Shown piece after piece: positions 649 to 3,601 of a stretch of 16,684 nucleotides of DNA. The position numbers and the translations under genes are program-made. Positions within the stretch are counted from its first letter, which is position 1, and each line of letters opens with the position of its first letter. The stretch is taken from IMG/VR virus record IMGVR_UViG_2526164618_000010; one strand, written 5' to 3'. This DNA is from a virus (Duplodnaviria > Heunggongvirae > Uroviricota > Caudoviricetes). The notes under the pieces were generated by a model. That model did not search any database. It saw nothing but the letters and a program-made list of their open reading frames with translations, and was not told where the DNA came from.

Positions 649-870
649 GTAAGCGTCATCTCAGTGTCGTCTATTTCAATGTCTGATGATTGGCGATGAT
701 AGAGTCCTCTTATAACGTTAATGGACTCTATCAATGTCAGATTCTCTTCGCCCCCGCAGGATTCGTGCCTCTTACTCTATGACTCTATGGAGTTTAAGCT
801 TGATCTTATTGAAAAATCTTACCAGCTAGGGGCCTGCGTGGCCCAACTGGCCAGAGAGTACGGGATTAAT
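649..870 (+). mobile_element. remnant left end of a second IS66-family element, truncated by the insertion at 871
   Basis: GTAAGCGTCATCTCAG at 649 resembles the GTAAGCGCCCCATCAG terminus at 871. Frame open 703-870 encodes …DSMEFKLDLIEKSYQLGACVAQLAREYGIN, paralogous to the orfA segment YSREFKVRLAKQAYSLG/ARIAREHDIN of the inserted element. Confidence 0.4.
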
Positions 871-952
871 GTAAGCGCCCCATCAGCGACGTCTTGTGAA
901 AATTGTCCTGTCTGGCAACAATCGCGCCCATCTATATTGATGGACACGAACG

Positions 953-1625
953 ATGAATTCCCAGACAACAAAAGATATTCCCTGCTTCCGTTCTTATTTG
1001 CCTGATGCCCTGCGTTTAAGATTTGAAGATAAACTGACCATCCGGGCCATCGCTCAGCGTCTGGGTCTCAGTCATTCCACAATACATACGCTTTTTCAGC
1101 GATTTCTTGCATCCGGTATCGCATGGCCATTGCCCGATTCAGTTTCATTCGCTCAACTTGACGCCATCCTTTATGCCAACAGAAAGAAGGAATTAACAGA
1201 GCCTCAAATCAGAGAAGGCTCATGGCGAAAAGAACGGCGAACCAGCTATAGCCGTGAATTTAAGGTCCGTCTGGCTAAGCAGGCTTACAGCCTGGGGCTG
1301 TTGTTGCCCGGATCGCCAGAGAACACGATATCAATATAACCTGCTGTTTAAATGGAAAAGCCAGTACGAGGACGGCTTACTGAGCGATGATGACATACAG
1401 GAATGCATGCCTGTCCCGGTGGCACTGACTGATACGCCGGAGCCGACCAGACCAGTTACAAATCCCTTCTGGCGTAACAAGCATGATGAGCGCCCTGAGG
1501 GGGCTCCCGGAAACGTCCCACGGTGCGAGCTGCATCTTAAATCAGGTGTGGTAAAACTGTTTGACCCTCTCACTCCGGAACTGTTACGGGCGCTAATCCG
1601 CGAAATGAAAGGGGGTATCCGATGA
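953..1625 (+). pseudogene. IS66-family orfA (accessory protein), at least two frameshifts near 1295-1340
   Basis: ORFs 953..1339 and 1254..1625 overlap in different frames. A third frame carries AVVARIAREHDIN between them, and the conserved NLLFKWKSQYEDG motif is in the second ORF. Confidence 0.65.
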
Positions 1626-1947
1626 TAACGCTGCCGACCGGTACCAAAATCTGGATCATCGCTGGCATCACAGATATGCGTTGTGGCTTCAATGGCCTGG
1701 CTTCGAAGGTGCAGAACACGCTGAAAGATGACCCGTTCTCCGGGCATATCTTCGTCTTCCGGGGCCGCAGTGGCAAAATGGTGAAAATACTGTGGGCCGA
1801 TCGTGACGGGTTATGCCTGTTCACCAAACGTCTGGCCGGTGACCCGGGAAGGGAAAGTGCACCTGACGCCAGCTCAGTTATCCATGCTACTGGAGGGGAT
1901 CGCGTGGCAACATCCCAAACGGACAGAACGGCCTGGCATCCGGATAT
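1622..1947 (+). pseudogene. IS66-family orfB (TnpB), one frameshift near 1825-1840
   Basis: N-terminus MITLPTGTKIWIIAGITDMRCGFNGLASKVQ…ILWADRDGLCLFTKRL is typical IS66 Orf2. The conserved C-terminus WPVTREGKVHLTPAQLSMLLEGIAWQHPKRTERPGIRI* is only readable in the +1 frame (ends TAA 1945-1947). Confidence 0.8.
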
Positions 1948-1968
1948 AACCCGTGATAAAACAAGGGA

Positions 1969-3569
1969 ATGAACAATGAACTCCCCGATGATATTGAGCT
2001 GCTTAAAGCCATGTTGCGTAAGCAACAGAGTCGGCTTCGACAGTATGCCTGTCAGGTCGCGGGCTATGAGCAGGAAATTGAACGGCTGAAAGCGCAACTC
2101 GACAGGTTGCGTCGTATGCTGTTCGGCCAGAGTTCAGAGAAAAAGCGTCATAAGCTTGAAAATCAGATCCGACAGGCAGAAAGACGACTGTCGGAACTTG
2201 AAAACCGGCTGAACACAGCCAGAAATCTTCTGGAAGATGCATCGTCAGTCACAGATTCACCTGACACCAGTCCCCCGTCAGAAAACCCGATCGCCAGTAA
2301 GCCTGAATTCCCGGGACGAAAAATCTTCACGAAAAACCGCTGCCGGCAGAACTTCCCCGGGAGACACATCGCCTTCTGCCTGCTGAAACCAGTTGCCCGG
2401 CCTGTGGAGGTGTTCTGAAAGAAATGGGGGAAACAATCTCAGAGCAACTGGATATCATTAATACCGCCTTTAAAGTTATCGAAACCATACGTCCCAAACT
2501 GGCCTGTAGCCGGTGTGATGTCATCGTTCAGGCACCACTTCCTCCTAAACCGATCGAACGCGGTTATGCCAGTGCAGGGTTACTTGCACGGATCCTGGTC
2601 AGCAAATATATGGAACATATCCCTTTATATCGCCAGTCAGAAATATACGCGCGACAGGGCGTGGAGCTGAGCCGTAATACCATGGTGCGCTGGGTATCAG
2701 AAATGGCAGACAAACTCCGTCCTCTGTATATAGCGCTGAATGACTATGTTCTGGAGGCAGGAAAGGTGCACGCAGATGACACTCCGGTGAAAGTACTGGC
2801 CCCGGGGAACGGAAAGACGAAAACGGGTCGTCTGTGGGTATACGTCAGGGATGATCGTAATGCGGGTTCATCCCTGCCGGCAGCCGTCTGGTTCGCGTAT
2901 TCGGCAGATCGCAAAGGAGAACATCCGCAGCTCCACCTGGCAAAGTATCAGGGCGTACTGCAGGCTGATGCCTATGCAGGTTATAACGTACTGTACGAAA
3001 CGGGCCGGGTGAAGGAAGCCGGGGGCCTGGCCCACGCCCGCCGAAAAATCCATGACGAGGATGTGCGCCGTCCGACAGAAATGACTCAGGAAGCGCTCAG
3101 ACGGATAGCAGAGTTATACGACATAGAAGCGGAGATACGTGGCAGTCCGGCAGAGGAACGGCTTGCAGTCAGAAAAGCCAGAAGCGTCCAGTTGGTGCAG
3201 TCGTTGTACGACTGGATACAGTTGCAGAGGAAAACGCTGTCGAAACATGCGGAGATGGCGAAGGCGTTCGACTATATCCTGAATCACTGGAATGCGCTGA
3301 ACGAGTTCTGTCGTGACGGCCGGGTGGAATAGACAACAACATCGGTGAAACGCGTTACGATCGGTGGCGGTTGGAAGAAAAATTATCTCTTTTTCGGCTC
3401 AGACAAGGGAGGAGAAAGTGCGGCGATCATCTACAGTCTGCTGGTCACCTGCAAACAGAACGAAGTGGAGCCGGAGGACTGGTTGCGCGAAGTGATCGAG
3501 AAGCTCAATGACTGGCCGTCGAACCAAGTGCATGAACTGCTGCCCTGGAACTTCTCGTCTGTAAAATAA
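1969..3569 (+). pseudogene. IS66-family transposase orfC (TnpC), split into three frames
   Basis: Segments 1969..2418 (coiled-coil N-terminus), 2424..3332 (catalytic core …[10 protein letters not shown]…GYNVLYE…) and 3345..3569 (…KKNYLFFGSDKGGESAAIIYSL…LLPWN) are all IS66 TnpC-like but in different frames. Confidence 0.8.
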
Positions 3570-3601
3570 TCCTTACGCTACGTACTTCTCGGGGCGCTTA
3601 C

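Follow-up and report, generated by a model that had tools for sequence, protein, structure and literature searches.

Insertion sequences of the IS66 family, such as IS66 and IS679, have reportedly been described by Han and co-workers in 2001 (J Bacteriol 183:4296) and by Gourbeyre and co-workers in 2010 (Res Microbiol 161:136), both of which appear in the reference list of PMC12898284. They carry three genes in the order tnpA-tnpB-tnpC with overlapping stop and start codons and characteristic domains, are bounded by GTAAGCG termini, and duplicate 8 bp of target DNA on simple insertion. One of them, ISSfl3, is already known, and a literature search on that name returned nothing relevant. Shigella flexneri harbours several near-identical ISSfl3 copies, of which the virulence plasmid pINV has three and the chromosome one or more; on pSFxv_1, the direct copies c1 and c2 bracket the T3SS island. 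Recombination between insertion sequence copies, both within pINV and between the plasmid and the chromosome, was described by Pilla, McVicker and Tang (2017; PMC5629016), and an 'ISSfl4' pair gave the commonest T3SS-island deletion in that study.

The window analysed here, 16,684 nucleotides long, is one whole contig, AFHA01000024.1 of the S. flexneri K-671 draft assembly GCA_000213435.2. This assembly is presumably a 2011 draft of the pyrosequencing era. Both contig ends fall inside repeats, an ospC paralogue on one side and IS600 on the other. The left part is of pINV type. Its first feature is ospC4 (1-381, minus strand; ospC3 in pCP301), a T3SS effector gene of which only the 5' end is present, since the contig ends within it, and whose frame is interrupted at 194/195 by the loss of one base from an A-run. 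The spacer that follows (382-648) has been seen only on plasmids, and bases 400-870 align with S. flexneri pINV without any difference. Further to the right lie a short IS66-like stub (649-870), an element at 871-3601, an IS2 tail and a 5' fragment of the Rz (spanin) gene of a lambdoid prophage (3882-4100, plus strand), which is truncated on its left side by IS2 and on its right by IS911.

The element at 871-3601 (plus strand), predicted from the sequence as an IS66-family member, is ISSfl3 by end-to-end alignment with intact copies, and corresponds to the 'ISSfl4' (ORF1-3) of the pCP301 annotation. It is 2731 bp long, compared with 2754 bp for intact copies and 2734 bp for a common S. flexneri variant with a 20-bp deletion. 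Over its full length it is 99.6% identical to the ospC4-adjacent copy found on pSFxv_1 and about 40 S. flexneri pINV plasmids, and 98.5% identical to intact copies annotated as 'IS66-like element ISSfl3 family transposase', which places it within the isoform range (at least 95% identity over the whole length to copies so named). The terminal inverted repeats are intact as originally claimed: GTAAGCGCCCC, with a GTAAGCG-type start, occupies 871-881 and recurs as its reverse complement at 3591-3601 (minus strand), with 11 of 11 positions matching. The genes tnpA (953-1625; natively 224 aa with a helix-turn-helix), tnpB (1622-1972) and tnpC (1969-3569; natively a 533-aa DDE transposase), all on the plus strand, are present in pieces. 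The intact copy at the same junction in locus L004 carries all the family domains, with Pfam matches to HTH_Tnp_1 (2e-23), TnpB_IS66 (2e-38) and DDE_Tnp_IS66 (2.5e-101) as well as to zf-IS66, LZ_Tnp_IS66 and DDE_Tnp_IS66_C. Apart from its lesions and the lack of a target duplication, the window copy does not differ from the family. The duplication proposed for simpler contexts was found on both sides of a 98.5%-identical copy in L001 (GGGAAGTC), whereas the window copy is flanked by GGATTAAT on the left and GGATGTTG on the right. The three pINV copies have no target duplication either, and no left and right flanks can be paired among these and the chromosomal copy. Recombination after the insertion, or a chimeric contig, would explain the missing duplication.

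The stub on the left of ISSfl3 (plus strand, 222 bp) belongs to a second, unnamed IS66-family element, in line with the terminus and orfA-like fragment noticed earlier. It is 85% similar over about 222 bp to the complete three-ORF element L007 in NZ_CP021720, which speaks against its being unrelated to the family. The similarity begins exactly at the terminus GTAAGCGTCATCTCAG (649), a family GTAAGCG end followed by a tnpA homologue, matches codons 1-43 of the L007 TnpA, and ends at 870/871, inside the L007 tnpA. An 8-bp tandem insertion at about 775-782 sets the native ATG at 734 out of frame with the helix-turn-helix-coding part, whose reading frame stays open to 870 from ATG 721 or 787; Pfam gave no match for the 50-aa fragment of the stub alone. 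That ISSfl3 was inserted into the orfA of this second element is reasonable for the left junction, but the far half of the element and an 8-bp duplication beyond the insert are missing both in the window and on pINV. To the right of ISSfl3 there is IS2 in the window and unrelated sequence on pINV, and the only L007-like right ends elsewhere on pINV are distant remnants (about 80%). On the right side, abutment to the last 280 bp of IS2 (3602-3881, plus strand) was correctly recognised. A complete IS2 of 1331 bp lies at 11146-12476, and its final 281 bp share 99.6% identity with the stretch 3601-3881. This stretch ends with the IS2 terminal repeat (...GGAAATATAGGGGCAAATCCA) and contains an 88-aa ORF matching Pfam rve_3.

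Compared with intact ISSfl3 copies, the window copy carries eight frame-breaking lesions, namely seven 1-bp indels and one 20-bp deletion. The original prediction had placed frameshifts in all three genes, and as a description of the sequence this stands, with positions right to within a few bases. In tnpA, single bases are deleted at 1285 and 1336; in tnpB, 20 bp are deleted after 1828, between CGTCTG repeats. The five 1-bp indels of tnpC comprise insertions at 2319 and 2332 (each A4 to A5) and deletions at 3328 (A3 to A2), 3348 (A4 to A3) and 3378 (A6 to A5). The ORF fragments at 953-1339, 1254-1625, 1622-1972, 1969-2418, 2424-3332 and 3345-3569 agree with these lesions, and tnpB is native for its first 69 codons and shifted thereafter, with a stop overlapping the tnpC ATG.

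These lesions fall into two very different groups. The 20-bp deletion is common to the pINV copies c1 and c2 and to six finished chromosomes (L017-L021 and L026), its product is still annotated as TnpB by PGAP, and it is a genuine and widespread ISSfl3 variant. As the last third of the TnpB domain is thereby removed, copies with the deletion are probably non-autonomous. It is also the only lesion for which the frameshift can be called natural to the reference element. Private changes, seen in this contig only, comprise all seven 1-bp indels together with four of the five substitutions. Among 44 other loci, none of these indels occurs in a true ISSfl3 copy; the sole exception is found in L006, where a diverged remnant of an IS66 tnpC has an A5 run at the 3378 site. 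The indels are also absent from the best plasmid and E. coli matches. Moreover, the frameshifted 149-aa TnpC fragment was found in one contig only of the whole gene index, the source contig itself; exact-protein look-up of the 302-aa and 128-aa frameshift products gave no match; and a window-specific 40-mer had 0 matches in a metagenome scan against 19 for the reference allele. The substitutions at 2119, 2183, 2199 and 3195 match no known copy. An origin of the substitutions in distant IS66 relatives or other copies was rejected, as a 92% relative, the three pINV copies and 11 chromosomal copies carry the reference bases, with the exception of G3024, the fifth substitution, which is shared with the chromosomal copies of L017 and L019.

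The distribution of differences along the contig is highly uneven. Over 11.2 kb shared with the near-identical finished chromosome CP012735.1 there are 17 differences, 16 of which lie in insertion sequence copies (12 in ISSfl3, three in IS911, one in IS2), whereas the single-copy DNA (about 6 kb) has one SNP and no indel (Fisher p = 7e-6). Generic homopolymer sequencing error across the contig is ruled out by the 85 A/T runs of at least four bases in the unique prophage DNA (about 5.8 kb), which are free of 1-bp indels both against an EIEC genome of a different lineage and against a near-identical S. flexneri genome. Lineage divergence or a mutator background is likewise ruled out, as the unique DNA (about 6 kb) contains only a single SNP. 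The excess extends to IS911 and the ospC paralogue, that is, to repeated DNA only. Furthermore, the deletions at 1285 and 1336 coincide with two of the roughly nine sites that vary among S. flexneri ISSfl3 copies (A/G and G/A), for which the chance expectation is about 1e-5. The copy is also an allele mosaic, with T1561 being the pINV allele and G3024 the chromosomal allele of L017 and L019; C3321 is a minority allele on pSFxv_1 yet matches the chromosomal copies of L017-L021.

A feature outside the view of the original prediction is that the two flanks of the element lie on different replicons in all finished genomes. The left, ospC4-adjacent pINV flank (flank A) was found on plasmids only among the finished genomes examined, and at none of the 10 chromosomal places examined. 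The right, prophage IS2/Rz flank (flank D) was found on chromosomes only, in 11 finished or near-finished genomes in which tnpA and tnpC are always open, and on none of roughly 59 plasmids. The ISSfl3/IS2 junction itself is conserved on S. flexneri chromosomes, and the chromosomal copy occurs with two alternative left flanks. The contig passes from a pINV-only flank through one ISSfl3 copy to a chromosome-only flank, in a draft assembly that runs through a repeat.

On balance, the window probably holds a repeat-consensus artefact in a chimeric contig, with both the seven indels and the plasmid-chromosome join created by assembly. The assembler would have come in from ospC4, along the flank of the neighbouring pINV copy, run through the multi-copy ISSfl3 and gone out into the prophage IS2/Rz locus, along the flank of the chromosomal copy. 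Within the repeat, the consensus would have merged reads from more than one ISSfl3 copy, and this would have introduced the seven 1-bp indels and a few substitutions as spurious changes. Some observations count against an artefact. The resolved alleles are not the simple majority of known copies, and the substitutions at 2119, 2183, 2199 and 3195 are unexplained by a pure mixture of copies. Repeats are usually covered more deeply by reads, which should improve a consensus rather than worsen it. Additionally, hybrid junctions between plasmid and chromosome can also be real.

The last point leads to the best of the alternatives, namely that in K-671 the ospC4-adjacent pINV copy recombined with the chromosomal IS2/Rz copy in a RecA-dependent manner, so that pINV was integrated or a pINV segment moved into the chromosome, the indels still being consensus errors. 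A real junction of this kind is possible but unlikely. It would account for a pINV-only flank joined to a chromosome-only flank across a single ISSfl3 copy, with a clean allele switch from the pINV-like T1561 to the chromosome-like G3024. ISSfl3 flanks are reshuffled in finished genomes, where the chromosomal copy has its two left flanks and no S. flexneri copy examined has a target duplication, and spontaneous, reversible pINV integration through plasmid and chromosomal insertion sequence copies has been documented for IS1294 (PMC5629016). Weighing against it are the counts for the two flanks (0 of 10 chromosomal places for flank A, 0 of about 59 plasmids for flank D) and the corrupted consensus inside the element, which is evidence for the merging of reads from several copies, exactly the situation in which an assembler leaves by the wrong flank. 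That the clinical isolate K-671 actually carries pINV, or its ospC4-bearing segment, recombined into the chromosome through ISSfl3 at IS2/Rz appears distinctly unlikely. If true, this would be a natural virulence-plasmid integration by an IS66-family element, and would extend the known routes of integration, for which the documented case is IS1294, to that family.

The weakest reading, a dead relic that acquired all eight frame-breaking mutations in vivo, is very improbable: the deposited sequence does show the lesions, A-run indels are also a product of replication slippage and the 20-bp tnpB deletion is real, but 11 private changes in 2.7 kb against one SNP in the adjoining 6 kb of unique DNA cannot be reconciled with neutral decay along one and the same lineage, IS911 and the ospC paralogue (repeated DNA only) show a like excess, two deletions sit exactly at sites differing between copies, and the seven indels occur in no other genome. 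The original picture of a graveyard formed by repeated insertion and recombination therefore survives in part: the element identities and an IS-rich, rearranged region are confirmed, but the decay of three genes is not supported as biology.

Under the preferred reading of an assembly artefact, there is most likely no triple-frameshifted relic but ordinary ISSfl3 copies, whose main role in Shigella would be that of portable homology for recombination. The locus is of little importance in itself, as ISSfl3 and the IS-riddled Shigella landscape are well described. It illustrates that calls of pseudogenes or 'decayed' insertion sequences are unreliable from draft contigs crossing multi-copy elements; here seven of the eight frameshifts, and perhaps the junction too, are probably absent from the cell. 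The eighth, the 20-bp tnpB deletion, is the hallmark of a widespread ISSfl3 variant, which passes as intact in annotation pipelines. Moreover, ISSfl3 copies flank the T3SS island of pINV and are also present on the chromosome, which makes them plausible substrates for loss of the island and for integration of the plasmid.

Compared with named ISSfl3 copies, the window element is alike in its termini, three genes and left flank, and differs in its seven private 1-bp indels, four private substitutions and a right flank that is the chromosomal one. It resembles collapsed or mis-joined repeats of draft short-read assemblies in having differences only in multi-copy DNA, gaps at copy-variable sites, flanks from different copies and contig ends inside repeats, a likeness read from the assembled bases. 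The integrations reported by Pilla et al. (2017; PMC5629016) used IS1294, whereas the putative ISSfl3-mediated junction here comes from a draft contig. A parallel lies in island deletion: ISSfl3 is probably the 'ISSfl4' of that study, and judging from the naming and similar coordinates, the c1/c2 pair, which brackets the T3SS island in the same way, would be its 'ISSfl4' pair.

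The segment at 871-3601 (2731 bp) aligns end to end with an insertion sequence that is already known, ISSfl3. Its transposase is annotated by NCBI as 'IS66-like element ISSfl3 family transposase', and the pCP301 record names the same element 'ISSfl4 ORF1-3'. Intact ISSfl3 measures 2754 bp, encodes TnpA (224 aa), TnpB (115 aa) and TnpC (533 aa), and carries the IS66 set of Pfam domains (HTH_Tnp_1; TnpB_IS66; LZ_Tnp_IS66, zf-IS66, DDE_Tnp_IS66 and DDE_Tnp_IS66_C). Members of the family reportedly move by means of the DDE transposase TnpC and also need TnpA and TnpB as accessory proteins. 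Both ends of ISSfl3 carry GTAAGCGCCCC. IS66 elements generate 8-bp duplications, and one of these, GGGAAGTC, lies on either side of a simple ISSfl3 insertion in an EIEC chromosome (L001). The nomenclature is inconsistent: ISSfl3 of PGAP/ISfinder is the 'ISSfl4' of pCP301 (L046, 92,107-94,726) and apparently also of PMC5629016, and PGAP applies 'ISSfl4' to an IS110-family transposase. Similarly, the effector gene beside ISSfl3 is ospC3 in pCP301 and ospC4 under PGAP.

The original prediction described frame breaks in all three ORFs, and alignment to intact copies confirms that this description was accurate. Compared with these copies, tnpA lacks 1 bp at each of 1285 and 1336, tnpB lacks 20 bp after 1828, and tnpC has 1-bp insertions at 2319 and 2332 together with 1-bp deletions at 3328, 3348 and 3378; all ORF fragments are accounted for by these lesions. 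The 20-bp deletion is real. About 40 complete virulence plasmids (pINV) of S. flexneri have it in the copy next to ospC4; a second pINV copy also shows it, as does the chromosomal copy of six S. flexneri genomes that are finished or nearly so. Two CGTCTG repeats enclose it, and deletion between short repeats is the usual footprint of slipped-strand deletion. The lesion keeps 69 native tnpB codons and removes about one third of the TnpB_IS66 domain. The resulting tnpB ORF (window 1622-1972; 5225-5575 in locus L003) ends, in the shifted frame, at a stop overlapping the tnpC ATG (ATGA), giving 116 aa vs the native 115, which is probably why pipelines do not flag the gene as a pseudogene; PGAP still labels the product TnpB. 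Copies with this deletion would be non-autonomous and might be complemented by c3, an intact copy on the pINV pSFxv_1.

The seven 1-bp indels were absent from every other ISSfl3 copy examined, namely the best plasmid and E. coli matches, three pINV copies, 11 chromosomal copies and 19 metagenome contigs; the sole partial match came from a diverged IS66 tnpC remnant with A5 at the 3378 site. Four substitutions (2119, 2183, 2199 and 3195) also had no match among the copies compared, metagenome contigs included, and a fifth, G3024, is common to the chromosomal copies of loci L017 and L019. Window 871-12102 is almost identical to the latter, the finished chromosome CP012735.1, with 17 differences, 12 of them in ISSfl3, three in IS911 and one in IS2. 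About 6 kb of single-copy prophage DNA holds one SNP and no indel, and the excess of differences in repeats gives Fisher p = 7e-6 with all differences counted and 3e-4 with indels alone. Moreover, the single-copy DNA is free of 1-bp indels despite its 85 A/T runs of at least four bases, and this holds in comparison with another lineage as well, so the fault is repeat-specific and not one of general read quality. The Rac-like/lambdoid prophage remnant spans 5349-11145 (hokD, queH, DUF977, ydaV, O-like, ydaT, cro-like and cI-like genes). Within it, ydaV falls into two ORFs (7627-7980 and 8032-8373) and the O-like gene lacks 11 bp at 8563; since both lesions are common to finished S. flexneri chromosomes, these are real pseudogenes, unlike the ISSfl3 indels.

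The two non-homopolymer deletions fall exactly on two of about nine sites that vary among S. flexneri ISSfl3 copies (1285, A vs G; 1336, G vs A), a coincidence expected by chance at about 1e-5. A consensus caller given reads of two copies can drop a variable base, whereas recombination or mismatch repair would not. The remaining five indels are changes in A-run length, two of them 7-10 bp downstream of variable sites 2309 and 3321. Further indels at 195 (ospC paralogue) and 5021 (IS911) likewise lie within repeated DNA. From these sequence comparisons, the private changes in ISSfl3 are probably not biological.

The ospC4 5' end (1-381, minus strand) has lost, as a private change, one base of the A-run at 194/195, which cuts its product to 62 aa. 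Its T118 is the base of an ospC paralogue and of EIEC ospC4, and its C-run at 372-381 lacks one base relative to pSFxv_1, a feature shared with EIEC; the pattern of errors only in repeated DNA fits here too. In IS911 (4101-5348, minus strand), the private deletion at 5021 lies in a T6 run on the plus strand, which is the A6 run of the A-AAA-AAG programmed-frameshift site (A6 to A5). Like this deletion, the T>C changes at 5032 and 5044 occur in no other locus examined.

Both neighbours proposed for the element were recovered. On the left, similarity to a complete IS66-family element with three genes (NZ_CP021720, inserted in a phospholipase-D-like gene) begins exactly at GTAAGCGTCATCTCAG (window 649), matching that element's left end, and continues at 85% identity up to 870/871, codon 43 of that element's TnpA. 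This stub has its own 8-bp tandem insertion (about 775-782), already shifting its frame. The left flank (ospC4, spacer and stub) was found only on pINV-type plasmids, where the right flank of ISSfl3 is a different sequence. On an EIEC plasmid (NZ_CP065616, L006, 3285-6038), ISSfl3 is reversed at the ospC4/stub junction and joined at exactly the same base, which points to inversion via recombination between inverted copies.

On the right lie the last 280 bp of IS2 (3602-3881), 99.6% identical to the complete IS2 at 11146-12476, followed by a 5' fragment of a prophage Rz gene and then by IS911. The flanks of the window copy, GGATTAAT and GGATGTTG, show no target duplication. All occurrences of the ISSfl3/IS2/Rz junction found were chromosomal: an exact 40-mer scan gave two, and searching with the Rz-fragment protein gave ten. 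In these, all unmasked sequence leaves tnpA and tnpC open, and six have the 20-bp tnpB deletion; the left flank of the chromosomal copy is a phage lysozyme gene in some and an MFS-transporter region in others. The intact pINV copy c3 (L014, pSFxv_1 173,286-176,039) also adjoins IS2, on its left side, at an IS2 position 78 bp from that at the right end of the chromosomal copy (cf. window 3602-3679). There are thus two independent positions at which ISSfl3 borders the 3' part of IS2.

Exact protein matching identifies the window as the whole of contig AFHA01000024.1 (16,684 bp) in GCA_000213435.2, a 2011 draft assembly that may have been pyrosequenced. In a published strain table, this assembly appears as Shigella flexneri K-671 (PMC6397287). 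The contig begins within ospC4, a member of a paralogous family, and ends within an inverted partial IS600. This end (16394-16684) is an inverted 291-bp duplicate of the 3' part of an IS600-like copy at 14231-15471, which differs by about 4% from the IS600 of locus L004 across its first 760 bp and has a 27-bp in-frame orfB deletion (263 vs 272 aa).

A plasmid-only left flank, a chromosome-only right flank, and the alleles T1561, as in the pINV copy, and G3024 make the contig a mosaic of pINV on the left and chromosome on the right. This is the appearance of a repeat-induced misjoin and equally of a real recombinant. On the alignments, the probable explanation is that the ISSfl3 copies are ordinary, the 20-bp tnpB deletion real, the 1-bp indels spurious and the contig chimeric, although the alleles it resolves do not simply follow the majority of known copies and the four private substitutions are unexplained by a mix of them. 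A real recombination of pINV with the chromosome via ISSfl3 in K-671 (the small indels being artefacts all the same) seems unlikely; it has a precedent in pINV integrating spontaneously and reversibly through IS1294 (PMC5629016). The interpretation in the original prediction is supported in part. Its truly decayed relic is highly improbable despite the accurately described frame breaks, as a 25-fold difference between ISSfl3 and its own flanks is not expected of a copy decayed along this lineage; most of the 'decay' is probably assembly artefact.

No ISSfl3 copy examined in S. flexneri has kept a target duplication, and the flanks of these copies are reshuffled, so that the element serves in practice as portable homology. 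On pSFxv_1, copies c1 and c2 are direct repeats bracketing ospC4, the ipa-mxi-spa island and icsA. Judged by coordinates and naming, they may be the 'ISSfl4' pair behind the island deletion seen most often in PMC5629016.
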